DNA from: Pyrinomonadaceae bacterium | Lineage (GTDB): Bacteria; Acidobacteriota; Blastocatellia; Pyrinomonadales; Pyrinomonadaceae | Length of the DNA stretch: 64,000 nucleotides | Reading direction: 5' to 3' | Assembly: GCA_035317005.1 (NCBI GenBank) | Contig: DATHHW010000137.1 | Span: forward strand, 384-64,383 | Shown: positions 3,815 through 32,462 of the stretch, in pieces | Position numbering within the stretch: the first letter of the stretch is position 1 | Layout: each line of letters begins with the position of its first letter | Notes under the pieces: generated by a model | Database searches by the model: none | What the model saw: only the letters and a program-made list of their open reading frames with translations | Told to the model about the DNA's origin: nothing | Position numbers and translations under genes: made by a program

Positions 3815-5938
3815 CTAAGGCGTTCCGAATCGTTTCCGATATTCGGTGGAAGTAATAAAGGCTTTTACCATGTCGGCCTTCTGCACGCGCACCAGAACGT
3901 CGTCGCCAGGTTGAGTGAAGCTGTTCAGCTTGGTCAACCAGAAGTCATAACCCGTGTAGTCAGTGTCCGGCAAGTCATTCGGATTTCGTCGCAGGTAACC
4001 AAAGAATTGCATCAAGAGAAACGCCTTATTGAATTCGGAGTTGACCAGGGTCTGATGTTCGGCAATTTGGCGCAGGACTTTCGCGCGCGTGGTCTGGCCT
4101 GTCGCAACTTGTAACGCCAACGTCGTTTCTTCAGTAGGCGATAATGGGCTGCCGGCATTTTGGTTCAACGTGTGAACAAAATCTGTTGGCAACATGTTGG
4201 CCGGATACTTAGTAGTAAATCGCGACCGAGTGACAAACTGATCACAGAAAGCCACCTTGTTACTCTCCAGCACGGCCTCCCAACCATTTTGTCCGACAAT
4301 GACCCCGCGCCCAATCTGCTGAGTGTCCGGCAGAAACTCGTTGGCGAAGCGAACGATCGGGACCTTCACTGTGTGAGTGCCACCGAACGTCGACGTGCCG
4401 TCAAAATCGTTGTAGGCGGTCTTGTAAAGACGCTCAACCAGATAGCCTGTCTGCTGAAATTCGATCGAGAGGAAAAAAGCCGCCGAAACGTTTACCCGCT
4501 TATTCTCGATGCAGGCTTGGTTACTCCCGCAGGAAGCAATCTCGTTAGTCCAGAAGGCCAGACCACTTGCGTCCGCGGTGCGATTCAGAAAGTCGAGATA
4601 CTGCTGCTTCACAAAGAAGTCCGGTTGATCGATTGGATTGCCGGCAGGCGCGTTGGTAAGACAACCTGAGTTCGCGTTAACGTAGTTAGTTATTTCATCG
4701 ATCGAGAACTGACAGAACGTCAAATTATTAAACTGGTTCTGCGTCGCCATCATGATGGTATTGTCACAATTGGCCTGACCGTCGCAGTGGCTGGCGCCAA
4801 AATTATGTCCGATCTCGTGAGCGGGAATGCCTACGCGAAACGGAGCGATTGTTTCCAGATCTGACACCCCGTACGCACCGGCTGGATCACGACACACGAC
4901 GCCCCCCCAAGCTATGCCAGAGTATCCGCCAAGGTCTCTGTTGGTCCAAAGATGCGCAACATCTCGCGGCGTGTTCGCAAAATCTCTGTTCCAGACAGTC
5001 GTGAACTCATTCAAGACGTCCCCGGCGTTGCCAGTGGTCGTGTAGGGATCGCTTTTAGGATCGGTCCAGGTGTGCTGAAACACCACGGTGAAGGTAAGAC
5101 CAATATCACGCTGATAAATCGCCTGAATCCCATTCATGACGCTAAGGATGTCATTGTTCGCGTTGGCCGAGCCGCCCAGAGCCGTCGTGTACTCGCCGTC
5201 CGCTTCGGTGGCGATCTCGACTACTTTGAAAGGAGAAAACGCGTTGGGCACAACTGTGCCGGATGCGATCCTGGGCGCGATGTCCTTTGCGCCGCGACTA
5301 ATCTCTTCGTCCAGAGTTCCGCAGGTCCGGGTTACGTCCGGCCGCACATCGGACGCTCTGTAAATCAGATAATCATTTGCTCCCGCGGCTGAAGAGTATT
5401 TGCGCGCGGATTCGACGAAATACGATCCCTGCGGCGTGATGATCATTCCTTCGATGTGTTCACCGTCCAGGGTAAATCGCGCATCCGTTCCAGAGACGCC
5501 TTCGACGCTGCCCTTGTACGTGGTAATTCCCGGCATGGGAACAACGCGCGTCACGCCTCCCTCCACAACTTCTTCGGCGCGATAGTTTGACGCGCGCAAA
5601 TCGTTGGGACTCAGTTGAATCTCAAAGTCATGCGTCGGTGTTACTAAAGACAGCCGGCCCGATTCCCTTACCCTTTCCGCCGCCGCCTGCGCGTCGAGTG
5701 TGACGTCTTCATGCCCGGTCAGGACCTGTTCGATGTCCAATTGGTAGCGAGACTTGGCGGACTGGGCCCCCGCAGGTGACGAATAAAAACCGGGACCTGC
5801 CGATAACGCCACCGCGGCTAAGGTGAACAGGAGGGAAACGTAAATCCTGAAACGAAAGCGACCGCGCAAAACTTCGCGGAGAGCGTGGGATTTCAAGCGT
5901 TGAGTGCTCGATTGATTGGAGGGTAGAACTTCTTTCAT
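3815..5938 (-). CDS. Secreted reprolysin/M12B-like zinc metalloprotease with C-terminal DUF4214-like domain
   Basis: HEIGHNFGASHCDG matches the HExxHxxGxxH zincin motif. Hydrophobic N-terminal signal/anchor. C-terminal FLNRTADASGLAFWTNEI resembles DUF4214. Confidence 0.8.
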   Translation of the reverse strand: MKEVLPSNQSSTQRLKSHALREVLRGRFRFRIYVSLLFTLAAVALSAGPGFYSSPAGAQSAKSRYQLDIEQVLTGHEDVTLDAQAAAERVRESGRLSLVTPTHDFEIQLSPNDLRASNYRAEEVVEGGVTRVVPMPGITTYKGSVEGVSGTDARFTLDGEHIEGMIITPQGSYFVESARKYSSAAGANDYLIYRASDVRPDVTRTCGTLDEEISRGAKDIAPRIASGTVVPNAFSPFKVVEIATEADGEYTTALGGSANANNDILSVMNGIQAIYQRDIGLTFTVVFQHTWTDPKSDPYTTTGNAGDVLNEFTTVWNRDFANTPRDVAHLWTNRDLGGYSGIAWGGVVCRDPAGAYGVSDLETIAPFRVGIPAHEIGHNFGASHCDGQANCDNTIMMATQNQFNNLTFCQFSIDEITNYVNANSGCLTNAPAGNPIDQPDFFVKQQYLDFLNRTADASGLAFWTNEIASCGSNQACIENKRVNVSAAFFLSIEFQQTGYLVERLYKTAYNDFDGTSTFGGTHTVKVPIVRFANEFLPDTQQIGRGVIVGQNGWEAVLESNKVAFCDQFVTRSRFTTKYPANMLPTDFVHTLNQNAGSPLSPTEETTLALQVATGQTTRAKVLRQIAEHQTLVNSEFNKAFLLMQFFGYLRRNPNDLPDTDYTGYDFWLTKLNSFTQPGDDVLVRVQKADMVKAFITSTEYRKRFGTP

Positions 5939-27639: not shown

Positions 27640-28318
27640 TTACATCCGACGACGGGCGGGGAGATAAACTCGGATGTCATCGTTTCGAGGATTCACGACA
27701 TAAACGGAAACGCGACCGTCGGGAAGCGTCTGAATTGTGGCCGGCGAGGCCAGCCCCGTGAGATACCAACCTGACGGCAGCACCACCGTGTTACGCAAAC
27801 GCCCAAAGGCCCGGTCCCACACCAACTCATCCGAGTCGACGTAATAACTTTTCGCGTCCGCGTAGGTTTCCATTAAACGGATCCTGTTGGTCGTGCTCGG
27901 GCTCAAGCGCCCGCGTGAGATGGGTGACGACGATCTCGCTGTCGTCCTTGATTGTATCTGTGATGGGCAGCTTTCGTTCGGTTGCTTGTTTGCCGGTGAT
28001 GATCTCGCACTTTAGTTTGGCGCCGGTATCCAGATCGATGCTTTCCGGATCGGACACATGACTGCCCGCGCGCACGACGTTGAAATAATACTTCTCGCCA
28101 ACCTTGCGAACTGTGTAGTCGTGAGTGATGCGAAAGGAATGCGACTCAGGCGACTGGAGCTCGTAGAGGATCTCGCGATCCTGATAGGCGCGTTCGGTGA
28201 GTGGATTCTGGTTTTGTGCGGCGGTGATTGTCAGTAACGCCTGCGGTCGCGGGAGGAGGCAGAAAATGCCGCTGAGTAGAGCGAAGAAAGCGATCACCAA
28301 TGGCCGGATTCTCATCAT
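27640..28318 (-). pseudogene. Frameshifted tandem paralogue of 28381..29118 (secreted hypothetical protein)
   Basis: ORFs 27827..28357 and 27640..27906 together align collinearly with the neighbouring 261-aa protein (YELQSPESHSFRITHDY versus YELLAPDTHQFKIYYEV; YADAKSYYVDSDELVW versus YKDDKSYYIEGDQIVF). The frames switch near 27905..27915. Confidence 0.7.
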
Positions 28319-28349
28319 GACAGTCGCGGTAAGGGATGCATCAAGTCTT

Positions 28350-28465
28350 ATTAGCACCTCGCTTCAGCGAGGTGATCTATTCAGTGCGATTGGACGCGAA
28401 AACCGTTGAAACGGTTATTCAGTTTTCCTCCCACCATGGTCACCTCGCTGAAGCGAGGCGCTAAT
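28350..28465. repeat. Family I palindromic element (cacctcgcttcagcgaggtg units)
   Basis: attagcacctcgcttcagcgaggtgatc ... gtcacctcgctgaagcgaggcgctaat, with an inner hairpin aaaccgttgaaacggtt. It overlaps the 3' end of 28381..29118. Confidence 0.8.
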
Positions 28466-29118
28466 GAAAGGATGTGTTCGTTTACTGTCAACGCCGCTTT
28501 CTTTGACGTAGGCAACTTCTTCGCCCTAATCGTGACTTCGAGCTGCCCGCCACTGCCCGGATTCACGAATGCAAGTTTCAGACGGCCGTCAGCTTCCGAC
28601 AAGACCTGCGTCGCCACCGAACATGAAACGATTTCGTACCCAGCGGGCAACACGATGCTGTCGCGTGGTATTCCGAGGGGCCGTTTGAAAACGATCTGAT
28701 CGCCCTCGATGTAGTAGCTCTTGTCGTCCTTGTAAGTTTTGATAATGGCCAGGCGATATTCGCCGCGATCTGAAACTGGGTGCGCCAGATGTACCTTAAT
28801 GTAATGGGACGTGGGACTGAAGTTCTCAGCCGGCGAATCAGTTTTGGCTTGGACGCCGGTTACGACTTCGATTTTCAGGGGCTTGCCGGTCGCCAGATCG
28901 ATAACCGATTCATCGGACGCCTCGCTCCCTTCGCGAATCTGGTTGAAGTGATAACGCGCGCCCGCGCGCGTCTCACTCACTTCGTAATAGATCTTGAATT
29001 GATGAGTGTCGGGCGCCAGCAATTCGTAGCGCGTGTAGGTGTCGGCGGAAATGTATTGGGCGGACGCCAGGCTGCATGAAGCAATGAAGCATACGAAGGC
29101 AATTAGCTTATTGAACAT
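28381..29118 (-). CDS. Secreted hypothetical protein with a repeat-derived C-terminal tail
   Basis: Signal peptide MFNKLIAFVCFIASCSLASAQ (start set at 29118). Paralogous to the adjacent pseudogene. The last ~29 codons are encoded by the family I repeat. Confidence 0.7.
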   Translation of the reverse strand: MFNKLIAFVCFIASCSLASAQYISADTYTRYELLAPDTHQFKIYYEVSETRAGARYHFNQIREGSEASDESVIDLATGKPLKIEVVTGVQAKTDSPAENFSPTSHYIKVHLAHPVSDRGEYRLAIIKTYKDDKSYYIEGDQIVFKRPLGIPRDSIVLPAGYEIVSCSVATQVLSEADGRLKLAFVNPGSGGQLEVTIRAKKLPTSKKAALTVNEHILSLAPRFSEVTMVGGKLNNRFNGFRVQSH

Positions 29119-29228
29119 TTGCGTTAGCGGCTGCATCAGGATTTGCGCGAATCCTACCAGCGTCAATAGAGGGATGATAAACTGATTTGAGTTTATCGTC
29201 AGTCAGAAAGCGTCCCGAAGCGAGCCGG

Positions 29229-29747
29229 ATGGAAAAGGTAATTGAAATACTAAACCGCATGCAAGCCGATGGCGTGTTCGAGAAATTCGCAATCGGCGGA
29301 GGGATAGCGGCGATCTATTATCTGGAACCCTACCAAACAGACGATATCGATGTCTTTATCTCGCCTGTATTGGTTGGCCAAAGCGGTTTGGTATCGCTTG
29401 AGCCAATATATTCCTATCTGGAGAAGCTGGGTTACTTGCCAGTTAAAGAAGGTGTGCTGATCGAAGATTGGCCGGTCCAGTTCGTGCCGACATTCGCCGC
29501 CGTGCAGGAGGAAGCAATTGCCCGGGCGCGGCGCGTCGAGTACGGAGGGACTCACACATTCATCTTTTCCGCGGAACATCTTGGCGCCGAGCTGCTCCGC
29601 TCGGGGAGACTCAAGGATCAGGTGCGAGTGATCGATTTGATCGAATCGAAAAAAATGGACATGAACGTGTTTCGCGATATCATTAGCCGCCATGGCTTGA
29701 CGGAGAAGTGGAAAGAGCTTGTTACGCGTTACGAGTTGGAGGAGTGA
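29229..29747 (+). CDS. Minimal pol-beta-fold nucleotidyltransferase (MNT-like)
   Basis: AIGGGIAAIYYLEPYQTDDIDVFIS fits the hG[GS]-x(9-13)-DxD NTase signature. The start is ATG 29229 or TTG 29187 (uncertain). The stop overlaps the next start by 1 nt. Confidence 0.65.
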   Translation: MEKVIEILNRMQADGVFEKFAIGGGIAAIYYLEPYQTDDIDVFISPVLVGQSGLVSLEPIYSYLEKLGYLPVKEGVLIEDWPVQFVPTFAAVQEEAIARARRVEYGGTHTFIFSAEHLGAELLRSGRLKDQVRVIDLIESKKMDMNVFRDIISRHGLTEKWKELVTRYELEE

Positions 29748-30493
29748 TGAGTAGCAAAACATTCGATCTGACCAAGATGACCGTCGAGGATCTCTTTCGC
29801 GCGAAGAAGGAGCGGCGGCAGCGTCTCGCCAACCTGCCTTTTCAAGAGAAGATTGAGATCGTTAAGAAGCTCCAAGCCGTCGCACGTACGATTCGGGCGT
29901 CGAGGCGCAAAGTTCGGCGGACGATGACGAACGAGAAAAATGTTTTTGCGTCGTTTCTGGAAGTTCTTCGAGACTTTGCTGGTGAGCCAGTCAAAGAATG
30001 GGATGTGGTTGAGGAATGGTACGTCAATCGTGCGCTCACTCCGCCTGCCGTGCCCTATGACAAACGGCCGGACGTCATCTGCGTCACCTCGTCTGGGAGA
30101 AAGATTGGTGTTGAGCTTAAGAGTTGGCTAAACGAAGAACAGATAGCAGAAGCTCGAAGCCGTCCCGACCATCAGTGGGTTCAGTCTCCTACGCCTGTTG
30201 GGTTTTATGGTGATGAAATGCTGGAGACACTAAGCAAATCCCTTGTTGCTCATACGGGGGATGCTCGCTACAAAGACCTTGGAAAGCTGATTGGGCTTGA
30301 TGAAGTCTATTTGCTTGTTCACTACGACTTCAAGTCCTTTGCTTACAACACACCATTTGATGCTCCTGGTTTTGGCTTCAAAGAAGCGGCGGAATCCGCG
30401 TCCCGCGTACTCGGGGGCGATGGTGGCTATTTCGACCGAATCTTTCTTTTCCACTTCTTGTGGGGCGAGGAAAAGGCCTACAGAATCCTATAG
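29747..30493 (+). CDS. Hypothetical protein with basic helical N-terminus and putative PD-(D/E)xK nuclease core
   Basis: ATG 29747 overlaps the upstream TGA (TGATG), with GGAGGAG upstream. RPDVICVTSSGRKIGVELKSW fits PD-x13-E-x-K. The fold is inferred from the motif only. Confidence 0.55.
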   Translation: MSSKTFDLTKMTVEDLFRAKKERRQRLANLPFQEKIEIVKKLQAVARTIRASRRKVRRTMTNEKNVFASFLEVLRDFAGEPVKEWDVVEEWYVNRALTPPAVPYDKRPDVICVTSSGRKIGVELKSWLNEEQIAEARSRPDHQWVQSPTPVGFYGDEMLETLSKSLVAHTGDARYKDLGKLIGLDEVYLLVHYDFKSFAYNTPFDAPGFGFKEAAESASRVLGGDGGYFDRIFLFHFLWGEEKAYRIL

Positions 30494-30521
30494 GTAAGAA
30501 TTTCTGCGAAGCACGGTAGGC

Positions 30522-31403
30522 TTATGCCGTAATGGGTCTGAGTTCCGCGTATTGATTCTTATTTGCCCGGGCGGCGTCGCGCAAATCCACCGCCTCCTGC
30601 AAATTCATCCAGATGTCTGGCGTAGTCTTGAACACTCGCGACAAACGAATCGCGATGTCCGCCGTCATGTCGCGGCGTTCATTGATCAGCTCGTTCAAAT
30701 GATAATATTCTCCCGCTGGCGTTTCGAAGTGCCAGGCTTCCTTATTAACTGTTCGATCTCGGAGCTATAAGCATGAGAAAACTCTTACTGCCGTGTCTGC
30801 TCTTCCTTCTTTTGATCGTTTCCTTTCAAGGTACCAATTCCCAGTCTCAAGAGACACCGTGGAACGAGTCTTGTAGCACAAACGATTCGAGGCATTACTT
30901 AAACTCTAAATACATTACAAAGGGCGTATACGCGAATAAGAATCCTGATGCTGAACTGCTCGCTGATATTTGGCTCAAAATAGTTCCGCGCAGGGACACT
31001 GAGCAAGGGCGCACAGTATATCAAGAGCACCTCAAGCAATTAAAGAAAAAGGTAAAAGATAAGAGTCAAGCGTTTGCCTATCAGATGGCGAAGATCAGCT
31101 TTCACTGTGAATCTCGTCGGGTCAATGTGTGGGAGATGTGGGATTACGATTCTGATGGGAACATACTCTATAAATGGCCAAAGACCTGGCCCGGACTGTC
31201 AACCACCCTGTATGGTGACACGGTTGGGCCTGGCACAGCGAACGAATGCCTGTTAGATATTGTGTGCGAGGTTCTTAAAGCCAAAGACTCATCTCTTAAA
31301 GAAAAGCGTTGATTTCGCGAGACATCGCGCCGGGATGGGTTGGCCGCACTTTACGCTGTATGTTCTTTCCTGCATGGTCAATCTTTTTCAGTGATGGTTC
31401 TCA
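30522..31403 (-). pseudogene. Decayed higBA paralogue: higA 3' part (30522..30696) and higA 5' part plus higB stop remnant (31313..31403), with the centre replaced
   Basis: Nucleotide-level similarity to 11664..12030. 30522..30696 encodes NELINERRDMTADIAIRLSRVFKTTPDIWMNLQEAVDLRDAARANKNQYAELRPITA*. The 5' piece is frameshifted. About 90 bp of HTH-coding sequence is missing and is replaced by 616 bp. Confidence 0.8.
30773..31312 (+). CDS. Secreted hypothetical protein (possibly surface-adhesin-E-like) carried on the low-GC insert
   Basis: Signal peptide MRKLLLPCLLFLLLIVSFQGTNSQ. Visibly AT-rich, Lys/Asn/Tyr-rich coding. ISFHCESRRVNVWEMWDYDSDGNILY resembles the Adhesin_E-type core (weak). Confidence 0.6.
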   Translation: MRKLLLPCLLFLLLIVSFQGTNSQSQETPWNESCSTNDSRHYLNSKYITKGVYANKNPDAELLADIWLKIVPRRDTEQGRTVYQEHLKQLKKKVKDKSQAFAYQMAKISFHCESRRVNVWEMWDYDSDGNILYKWPKTWPGLSTTLYGDTVGPGTANECLLDIVCEVLKAKDSSLKEKR

Positions 31404-31412
31404 ACCGGCAAG

Positions 31413-32462
31413 TCATCGCGCCACCACCCCAACGTTCGCGATGGTCGCACCCTTAGTCATCGACGGCACTGCGCAAACGTACAAAATCACTCCGGCAACA
31501 GGAGCTCGTGCTTCAAACACAACGTTTCCTAAATAGTCCGTAACGTAACCAACCTTCATTCCCTGCTCGACGTAAGTCCCGCGTTTGACGAGCGGATAGA
31601 ACATGCCGGTTTGTTCGCTGGTTATCGTCACGACCTTCTCGATCCAGACTGGATGTTCGATCACTGACGGAGCACCAGGCAACATCTTCAGATAGCGCAT
31701 CACACCGAGGCACCCGTTCACCAGCGCATTGAGATCGTCCGTCTCGACCGTGCCGGCGTATCCCGCTTCGGCCGTAATCGATGGTTTGCCGCGCACGGTC
31801 GCAGTGTTTTCCAGATAGCGTGAAGCCTGCGGATCTTTGGGCCGGTCAGTCGAGATGATGATGTGATCGAGACCAAAGGCCAAAACCATCTCGCGAGAGA
31901 TCTGATCCTGCTTTTCATTCCCCGTCTTCGTCCAGTAACTGTAAGGCCGCAGGCTTTCATCGAGATCGCCGCCGTGCAGATCGATCAAATAATCGCACTG
32001 CTCTACCACTTGTTTGGTGATCAGGAATGAAGCGCGATCGGTCTGGGTGCCGTCCATCTTGCCGGGGTACCAACGGTTCATGCTCTTGCGATCCACCGGA
32101 TTGAGGTGCGGCACTTTCTGCTCGAACGATTGAATGTTGATGAGCGGAACCACGATCACCGTGCCGGAAATCTCCGCCGGGTTGAGCATGCCGATCAACT
32201 TCTCGAGCGCGATGATCGAAGTGTACTCAGTCCCATGCGAGCCGGCTACCAGCGCCAGCACCGGCCCGGGCTTCGCGCCATGAAAGACAGCCACAGGAAT
32301 GCTCAGGGCCGCGTCGCTCCCGGCCGGAACCTCAATCGTGCCGGTAGCCTTCTGCCCGCGTGCGGCGGTTGCGGTGCCCACAGTAAGCGTGGTCCGTTCC
32401 TGGGCGTCAGCTGCACCGACAAATAAAAATGCGAGTATGGCAGTGGCAATCAAGCGTGGCAT
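31413..32462 (-). CDS. Succinylglutamate desuccinylase/aspartoacylase (AstE/AspA, M14-like) family protein, secreted
   Basis: GSHGTEYTS (H-x-x-E zinc site) and DLHGGD motifs. N-terminal signal peptide. Confidence 0.8.
   Translation of the reverse strand: MPRLIATAILAFLFVGAADAQERTTLTVGTATAARGQKATGTIEVPAGSDAALSIPVAVFHGAKPGPVLALVAGSHGTEYTSIIALEKLIGMLNPAEISGTVIVVPLINIQSFEQKVPHLNPVDRKSMNRWYPGKMDGTQTDRASFLITKQVVEQCDYLIDLHGGDLDESLRPYSYWTKTGNEKQDQISREMVLAFGLDHIIISTDRPKDPQASRYLENTATVRGKPSITAEAGYAGTVETDDLNALVNGCLGVMRYLKMLPGAPSVIEHPVWIEKVVTITSEQTGMFYPLVKRGTYVEQGMKVGYVTDYLGNVVFEARAPVAGVILYVCAVPSMTKGATIANVGVVAR

Follow-up and report, generated by a model that had tools for sequence, protein, structure and literature searches.

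Analysis of a 64,000-nucleotide stretch of DNA from a Pyrinomonadaceae metagenome-assembled genome (MAG), hereinafter the window, revealed a pair of overlapping open reading frames, ORF1 and ORF2 (a protein identical to the latter is deposited as VK582_18825), which we predict, with a probability of about one half, to be a nucleotidyltransferase (NTase) toxin-antitoxin (TA) module resembling MenAT1 of Mycobacterium tuberculosis. Under this prediction, ORF1 would be the toxin and the small N-terminal domain of ORF2 a minimal antitoxin that is unrelated to its mycobacterial counterpart; the order of the two genes would be reversed, and in one lineage the antitoxin would have been fused to a nuclease-like domain that is trimmed in the window. 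The pair itself is real and is matched by none of the libraries used: scans of ORF1, ORF2 and the long and short forms of ORF2 found in related loci against Pfam, NCBIfam, PHROGs and PADLOC yielded nothing above threshold, and PADLOC-DB 2.0 contained no component matching ORF1 or ORF2 at E<=1. This agrees with an earlier examination of the window, made from its sequence alone (hereinafter, the original prediction), which could not place the pair in any named TA or defence family.

The two genes are co-directional and share a single base between the stop codon of ORF1 and the ATG of ORF2, with a ribosome-binding site immediately upstream in the last ORF1 codons (Table 1). The junction ..GGAGGAGT(A/G)ATG.. 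is retained in most of the 22 related loci, and where it is conserved, the codons for the C-terminal L-E-E of ORF1 also serve as the ribosome-binding site for ORF2. The longer version of ORF1 that opens at TTG 29187 was discarded in favor of the start at ATG 29229 because the 558 homologues are 172-174 aa long and open with MEKVI. Every complete related locus contains ORF1 followed by a gene that begins with the N-terminal domain of ORF2, with overlapping or abutting stop and start codons. Using tblastn against plasmids, we identified a single distant ORF1 homologue, on the plasmid pHY1 of Methylovirgula sp. HY1 (L112, NZ_CP073765.1), which adjoins a CopG/RelE pair and shares an ATGA overlap with a downstream, unannotated 63-aa ORF (5564-5755) homologous to the N-terminal domain of ORF2 (hhalign probability 83.5%, E 8e-6). 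Thus, the neighbourhood of the two genes, by which the original prediction proposed to check the pair, is kept in every complete related locus, that on the alphaproteobacterial plasmid included. No ORF1 relatives were found in a scan of IMG/VR, and tblastn searches of phages with ORF1, and of plasmids and phages with the C-terminal domain of ORF2, found none. Partner genes encoding 61-77 aa can escape annotation, and the pHY1 copy is absent from the available, incomplete gene table. In a MAG derived from long reads (L023, 6001-7510), both ORF1 and ORF2 are frameshifted, which may reflect either sequencing error or decay of the whole pair.

The AlphaFold2 (AF2) model of ORF1 is confident (predicted local distance difference test, pLDDT, 89.7; predicted template modeling score, pTM, 0.86), and a Foldseek search of the PDB with this model returned MenT1/MenAT1 structures as the five best matches (8an4, 8an5 and 8rr5; E 7e-7 to 2e-5, probability 1.00, template modeling score, TM, 0.62-0.67), in which MenT1 is free, phosphorylated at T39 or bound within the MenAT1 complex. 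The next matches are 5uvd (an uncharacterised fungal NTase-like protein), the C-terminal domain of AbiEi, ANT(2'')-Ia, giant-virus poly(A) polymerases and TM1012; no structure of an antitoxin of the minimal nucleotidyltransferase (MNT) type is found among the top 50. The active site of MenT1 consists of T39, D41xD43, K137 and D152, and T39 is autophosphorylated upon binding of MenA1, a 68-aa two-helix antitoxin without a DNA-binding domain (PMC10435456, PMC11375011). In an alignment of 36 ORF1 relatives (A4), G23-G25, T37, D39 and D41 show no variation and D38 almost none; the signature GG-x13-DxD fits ORF1, which misses the strict pattern hG[GS]-x9-13-Dh[DE]h by one residue, and the T-x-D-x-D motif is also retained, as T-E-D-L-D, in the plasmid homologue (36.5% identity). 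In addition, K129 and D144 are nearly invariant among the relatives and are separated by 15 residues, as are K137 and D152, which are essential in MenT1. At the sequence level, all 36 relatives match Pfam family DUF2204 (PF09970) below threshold, in the N-terminal ~44 residues around motif I only (best E 3.4e-4; 16.8 bits for ORF1 of the window, under the curated cut-off of 20.3 bits), and a literature search on DUF2204 returned nothing relevant. A profile search of the PDB with the ORF1 family yielded chance matches only and did not find MenT, and similar searches with the families of ORF2, its N-terminal domain and the stand-alone relatives of its C-terminal domain likewise gave nothing beyond chance. 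Together with the conserved motif, the predicted structure identifies ORF1 as a protein with a nucleotidyltransferase fold.

The gene downstream of ORF1 takes three forms in the related loci: a long one of 322-343 aa, a short one of 61-77 aa and, in a single locus, one of 132 aa. In the model of a long form (P0105), the N-terminal domain is made up of two helices (residues 13-29 and 32-43), after which comes a disordered linker (pLDDT <50). The short form, found at 8 of the first 22 related loci, consists of nothing more than this domain (the first ~48 residues of ORF2) and a charged tail, and no remnant of the C-terminal domain was found downstream of the short genes. The 132-aa variant (L010, 6526-6924) combines the usual N-terminal domain with an unrelated C-terminal extension of ~80 aa and may represent a second, different fusion. 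Because the short proteins correspond to the N-terminal domain alone, and relatives of the C-terminal domain exist as stand-alone proteins without it, ORF2 unites a small partner domain with a member of a separate protein family.

The loss of the two genes is one-sided. In one metagenomic locus (L043, 1389-1520), ORF1 is deleted right after T37, and in another (L097, 916-1360), it lacks residues 69-92 and changes frame; in both, a long ORF2 is intact. Among the related loci, there is none with an intact ORF1 but without the N-terminal domain of ORF2. Given these one-sided knock-outs, the resemblance of ORF1 to MenT1 and the many loci without the nuclease-like domain, we propose that ORF1 is the toxin and the N-terminal domain of ORF2 the antitoxin. 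In the mechanism that we envisage, ORF1 would add nucleotides to the acceptor ends of tRNA and so arrest translation, and the ~48-aa N-terminal domain of ORF2 would bind and neutralise it, covering its active face like MenA1 and possibly provoking autophosphorylation of Thr37. In one Pyrinomonadaceae lineage, this small partner became fused to a ~280-aa domain from a stand-alone family borne by mobile elements, an add-on that is dispensable, having apparently been lost again several times and, in the window, trimmed by 99 residues. The toxicity and tRNA target of ORF1, the antitoxin action of the N-terminal domain and any nuclease activity of the C-terminal domain are predictions made by computation.

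A hidden Markov model (HMM) search with the profile of the long form detected 494 representative clusters at E<=1e-3, most of them stand-alone proteins 270-300 aa in length whose match extends over profile positions ~50-325, that is, the C-terminal domain without the N-terminal one. Scanning 78 diverse members of this stand-alone family (22-42% identity) revealed no Pfam, NCBIfam or PDB sequence match, and one of the 78 matched the PADLOC model REase_II (E 1.4e-4). In these 78 proteins (numbering of P0105), E52 in helix 1 is kept in 75, the aspartate of P97-D98 at the start of strand 2 in all, E112 in strand 3 in 75, and Q121 and K/R126 in the next helix in 60 and 57, respectively. K114, also in strand 3, is kept in 10 only (30 have G and 19 have T) and is invariant only in the fused clade. 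The P0105 model (pLDDT 80.4, with the domain blocks mostly at 80-95) shows the secondary-structure order alpha-beta-beta-beta-alpha-beta (H52-62, E71-76, E99-103, E108-115, H119-139, then a strand), and this succession carries E52, P97-D98 and E112-x-K114. The motif by itself is weak, given that PD-x10-20-[DE]xK occurs in 6 of the 115 ORFs of the window and in 6.8% of the shuffled ORF2 sequences; because so loose a motif is common, we count it as evidence only through its conservation. Foldseek, queried with the whole P0105 model, found nothing significant (best E 0.11 in the PDB and 0.08 in BFVD), and the weak matches are mostly nucleases, including RecU, VRR-NUC, HinP1I, SfsA, alkaline exonucleases and proteins annotated as 'PD-(D/E)XK nuclease'.

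The stand-alone relatives were found in seven distinct contexts (L025, L027, L028, L113, L114, L115/L116 and L117; the gene lies at 5001-58xx, except in L117, where it lies at 1546-2388), none of which adjoins an ORF1-like gene. These neighborhoods include an N6-methyltransferase with an HNH protein, an excisionase and an integrase; an integrase and HicB; FRG and DNA ligase; a serine recombinase with two DNA methyltransferases; SMC, Fic and transposases; and, in two cases (L115/L116 and L117), SNF2/DEAD helicases with a resolvase. No conserved partner gene was seen beside the stand-alone relatives in the seven contexts. For the proposal that ORF2 is a PD-(D/E)xK nuclease, this evidence has two sides, because the secondary-structure order and the conservation of E, PD and E are compatible with it, but the lysine is not conserved family-wide and there is no significant match to a fold or profile. 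On balance, we consider it plausible, with the odds slightly in favor, that the C-terminal domain is a nuclease of this type, and the ~280-aa mobile-element family, unmatched in Pfam, the PDB, NCBIfam and PHROGs, can reasonably be regarded as a candidate new family of nucleases.

Comparison with homologues also shows what the original prediction could not, namely that the 248-aa ORF2 of the window is a deletion derivative of a ~334-aa protein, the approximate length of nearly all of its 245 homologues. When the long form is used as the tblastn query, ORF2 is matched as two collinear segments (query residues 1-128 and 228-335), the missing part comprising the end of helix 119-139, strand 150-157 and the subsequent helices and strands to residue 227. 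The deletion junction (..QWVQSP..FYG-DEML..) is common to the window and L030/P0002, and between these two ORF2 genes, the synonymous divergence (dS) is ~1.1 and the ratio of nonsynonymous to synonymous divergence (dN/dS) is 0.16 (0.11 before the junction and 0.25 after it). In L031/P0042, almost the same segment was deleted independently. The sequence comparisons thus indicate that the trimmed ORF2 remains under purifying selection, and we discarded the possibility that it is a decaying pseudogene. Because of the independent similar deletion in L031 and the continued purifying selection, the middle ~95 residues appear to behave as a separable module.

In a rough neighbour-joining (NJ) tree of ORF1, the basal branches are the plasmid sequence, which is accompanied by a short form, and a clade with four short forms and the 132-aa form but no long ones, and the long forms belong to one clade within which three short forms are scattered. 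Because the short forms are basal and the long-form clade is single, the tree suggests a short ancestor and one fusion, followed by several secondary losses of the C-terminal domain and two independent internal deletions (window/L030 and L031).

To assess the mobility of the pair, we used its conserved 261-aa neighbour as a probe, obtaining 80 metagenome loci, ~45 of which include enough upstream sequence. The pair is found beside this neighbour in ~11 of the 45 informative loci; two loci are clean empty sites in which an AstE-like gene is followed directly by the 261-aa neighbour (L100 and L111), and in two others, the pair alone fills the gap between the flanking genes (L033 and L089). Altogether, the pair occupies four chromosomal contexts that are intermixed in the ORF1 tree. 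Because of the empty sites and the four contexts, comparison of these loci identifies the pair as an insertable accessory unit, and we discarded the alternative that it consists of core, vertically fixed genes, which the identical context in L001 had suggested. Separately, in L070, a 63-bp copy of the 3' end of the AstE-like gene (2514-2576, and 1-858) flanks an insert of ~1.6 kb beside a short-form pair and resembles a target duplication at a hot spot for integration.

Several observations weigh against a MenAT1-like module. The order of the genes is the reverse of that in MenAT1, with the NTase first and the small partner downstream in all loci; neither ORF1 nor any of its 36 relatives matches PF08843 at E<=1, the sub-threshold similarity to DUF2204 being the sole sequence-level signal; and in profile searches, the N-terminal domain of ORF2 resembled neither MenA1 nor anything in the PDB or Pfam. 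K129 and D144 are equated with the MenT1 residues by spacing and not by superposition, and the lesions in L043 and L097 come from short-read metagenome assemblies and might be assembly errors. No clear conserved operator was found across the related loci, and in two of the contexts (B and C), ORF1 lies directly 3' of a housekeeping gene, which leaves no room for a promoter of its own. Finally, proteins that are not toxins, namely ANT(2'')-Ia and TM1012, are also good structural matches to ORF1 (E 8e-4 to 1e-2, TM 0.52-0.56). This last observation, together with the unassigned function of DUF2204, the stable inheritance within clades of the pair in contexts B and C and the lack of an operator, would fit a pair that is not a TA module at all, with ORF1 a benign accessory NTase (a modifier of small molecules or antibiotics like ANT(2'')-Ia, or an enzyme of the TM1012/DUF2204 type) and the N-terminal domain of ORF2 a regulatory or substrate-presenting subunit. 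We consider this rather unlikely, considering that the MenT1 matches are better by 2-3 orders of magnitude in E-value, that the Thr-x-Asp-x-Asp phospho-acceptor motif is retained, that the pair is polymorphic for presence and absence and adjoins other TA genes (the higA remnant in the window and CopG/RelE on the plasmid), and that gene loss is one-sided.

The original prediction assigned the roles in the opposite way, with ORF1 as an MNT-like type VII antitoxin that modifies or sequesters ORF2, and the PD-(D/E)xK domain as the toxic or defence effector. Its NTase component stands, given the fold and the motif of ORF1, and the proposal as a whole has the attraction that a small NTase is located upstream, as MNT is in MNT-HEPN pairs, that the fused clade shows no variation in E, PD and ExK, that the stand-alone relatives occupy defence-island or mobile-element contexts and that one of them matches REase_II. 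The antitoxin and effector components are not borne out: 8 of the first 22 loci and the plasmid carry ORF1 and the N-terminal domain intact and no nuclease domain, this domain was apparently lost several times elsewhere and is internally deleted in the window, the best structural matches of ORF1 are to a toxin, and ORF2 has neither a Pfam HEPN match nor, on reading its sequence, the Rx4-6H motif, the long form being modelled as two helices and an alpha/beta domain. Long ORF2 is intact where ORF1 is destroyed, which should not occur if ORF2 were toxic and ORF1 its antidote, and this assignment of roles is therefore disfavoured to the point of being improbable. Another scheme, a two-effector defence module limited to the fused clade, would have the nuclease-like domain sense or cut invading DNA and thereby release or activate the NTase, with the antitoxin as the sensor, as in fused TA defence systems. 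The invariance of catalytic-type residues across a clade with many fused clusters (~245 homologues), the purifying selection on the deleted form in the window and the origin of the domain in defence-island-like contexts would all be expected under this scheme, which is nevertheless improbable, as the domain was lost repeatedly, PADLOC detects nothing for the pair, and neither IMG/VR nor tblastn searches revealed viral or plasmid copies of the fused form; these bacteria are, moreover, uncultured and have no phage-host system. As for the window copy being a decaying, non-functional remnant like the neighbouring higA, the loss of 99 internal residues and the degraded gene in the same islet are what one would expect, but neither reading frame is interrupted, a full-length relative of ORF1 (P0121) is 98% identical to it, the deletion is shared with L030 under a dN/dS of 0.16 over dS ~1.1, and the independent deletion in L031 suggests a separable middle part; this possibility is accordingly very remote. 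The MenAT1-like TA module thus appears to be the best interpretation of the pair. A broader version of it, in which the pair represents an undescribed TA family consisting of a MenT-like tRNA NTase toxin encoded first and a new ~50-aa antitoxin, which in Pyrinomonadaceae has captured a restriction-endonuclease-like domain from a hitherto unrecognised nuclease family of mobile elements (~490 clusters, absent from Pfam) and, as a bifunctional antitoxin-nuclease, couples the sensing or cutting of foreign DNA to the release of the translation toxin, is considerably more speculative, and we regard it as doubtful.

Table 1. Features of the ORF1-ORF2 locus and the surrounding islet (coordinates refer to the window)
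Feature	Position	Strand	Description
ORF1	29229..29747	+	172 aa; MenT1-like minimal nucleotidyltransferase, presumed toxin; stop TGA 29745-29747
NTase motif I	29295..29351	+	G23-G24-G25 ... T37-D38-D39-I40-D41; T37 putative phospho-acceptor, D39 and D41 putative metal ligands
Coupling junction	29738..29749	+	GGAGGAG 29738-29744 in the last ORF1 codons, then TGATG 29745-29749; read from the sequence
ORF2	29747..30493	+	248 aa; ATG at 29747-29749
ORF2 N-terminal domain	29747..29890	+	residues 1-48; two basic helices; constant partner of ORF1, presumed antitoxin
Basic linker RTIRASRRKVRRT	29891..29929	+	includes a 10-aa insertion relative to the long forms; resembles the tails of short-form ORF2 (alignments A1 and A6)
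ORF2 C-terminal domain	29930..30493	+	residues 62-248 and stop; internally deleted copy of an unannotated, mobile-element-associated PD-(D/E)xK-like domain
Putative nuclease motif	30068..30121	+	P108-D109 (30068-30073) ... E123-L124-K125 (30113-30121); invariant in the fused clade
In-frame deletion junction	30161..30172	+	long-form residues 129-227 (99) absent; from tblastn
Accessory islet	29167..31412		flanked by two conserved genes, the 261-aa gene (ends at 29166) and the AstE-like gene (starts at 31413); contains ORF1-ORF2, the remnant of higA and the 179-aa ORF
Imperfect inverted repeat GATGATAAACT-N6-AGTTTATCGTC	29173..29200		11-nt arms; 29 nt upstream of ORF1
HigA antitoxin remnant	30522..30698	-	C-terminal half with an internal deletion; TIGR02607, 53.9 bits, model positions 38-80 of 81
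179-aa ORF	30773..31312	+	N-terminus resembling a signal peptide or lipoprotein; lowest GC in the islet (0.457)

The computed GC content is 0.46-0.52 over 28.9-31.6 kb of the window; the flanks are for the most part at 0.53-0.61 but fall to 0.49 near 27.1-27.7 kb. This bears out the by-eye impression of the original prediction that this stretch is richer in AT; its suggestion of an accessory islet is likewise borne out by the empty sites L100 and L111. The 'decayed higBA' locus that it placed beside the pair is in part confirmed: a HigA remnant is present, with the N-terminal part deleted, but the 75 bp that separate it from the next ORF contain no higB. The 179-aa ORF further downstream shows a weak match to Adhesin_E (E 0.0095, below the cut-off) and is absent from the 80 related loci. 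Scans of the locus for promoters, terminators and inverted repeats gave results at the background level. Upstream of ORF1, wherever the pair abuts the 261-aa gene, the divergent intergenic region retains the sequence GATGATAAACTGATTT, one half of the inverted repeat, whose left arm is kept in loci of the same context. The repeat is only half conserved and overlaps a minus-strand -10-like box of that divergent gene; it may represent either an operator or the neighbour's promoter, and we do not claim it as an operator. The 261-aa gene (28381-29166) and an adjacent 176-aa gene (27827-28357), both on the minus strand, are tandem paralogues with N-termini resembling signal peptides; they are conserved beside an SLT transglycosylase and abound in soil metagenomes, with 294 relatives in a single scan. 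Elsewhere in the window, the sole Rfam match is the Acido-Lenti-1 small RNA (RF01687; 50418-50462, plus strand; 41.5 bits, which exceeds the gathering score), and tRNA genes are absent.

If the MenAT1-like prediction is correct, NTase toxins of the MenT type, which have been studied mainly in mycobacteria (MenT) and AbiE phage defence, extend to abundant uncultured soil Acidobacteriota, where the operon has its genes in reversed order and the minimal antitoxin is of a third, unrelated kind. The pair would then test how general the proposed mechanism is by which any small binding partner can induce autophosphorylation of the toxin (PMC11375011). The related loci further suggest a series leading from a short partner to a nuclease-like fusion and on to repeated loss or trimming of the added part, which should be useful for asking what roles the add-on domains of antitoxins play.

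Among known systems and families, DUF2204 (PF09970), an NTase family without known function, resembles ORF1 below threshold and only in the motif-I region. In MNT-HEPN pairs (type VII), too, a small NTase of the pol-beta type is coupled within an operon to a partner encoded downstream, but there the NTase is the antitoxin and the partner a HEPN RNase with Rx4-6H. With the PD-(D/E)xK nucleases (RecU, VRR-NUC and type II restriction endonucleases), the C-terminal domain of ORF2 shares the order of secondary-structure elements, with E in helix 1, PD in strand 2 and ExK in strand 3, and its weak Foldseek matches are mostly to such nucleases; its relatives, too, reside on mobile elements beside methyltransferases. 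It differs from them in that no known member or profile is matched significantly, the lysine is not conserved family-wide and the ~280-aa domain includes a separable ~95-aa middle module. The AbiE system (AbiEi/AbiEii, type IV TA or abortive infection) is likewise a bicistronic mobile module with an NTase toxin of the same superfamily, and the C-terminal domain of AbiEi is among the structural matches of ORF1; however, AbiEii is larger and matches PF08843, which ORF1 does not, AbiEi is a ~200-aa winged helix-turn-helix (wHTH) protein encoded upstream, and the PADLOC models do not match the pair. The closest counterpart is MenAT1 (Rv0078B/Rv0078A; MenT/AbiEii, DUF1814), whose toxin MenT1 is the best structural match of ORF1. 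The two NTases are close in size (172 aa for ORF1 compared to ~176-195 residues for MenT1 chains), have the T-x-D-x-D motif and a K...D pair at equal spacing, and are encoded in two-gene operons with a tiny two-helix partner of ~60-75 aa that lacks a DNA-binding domain, although the likeness of the partners is limited to size and helices. Unlike MenAT1, the pair described here comes from Acidobacteriota and one alphaproteobacterial plasmid, neither ORF1 nor the partner shows detectable sequence similarity to the mycobacterial proteins, and in many members the partner is fused to the ~280-aa nuclease-like domain. Thus, by sequence profile and gene order, the pair falls outside the formal MenAT family, but it probably works like a member of it.

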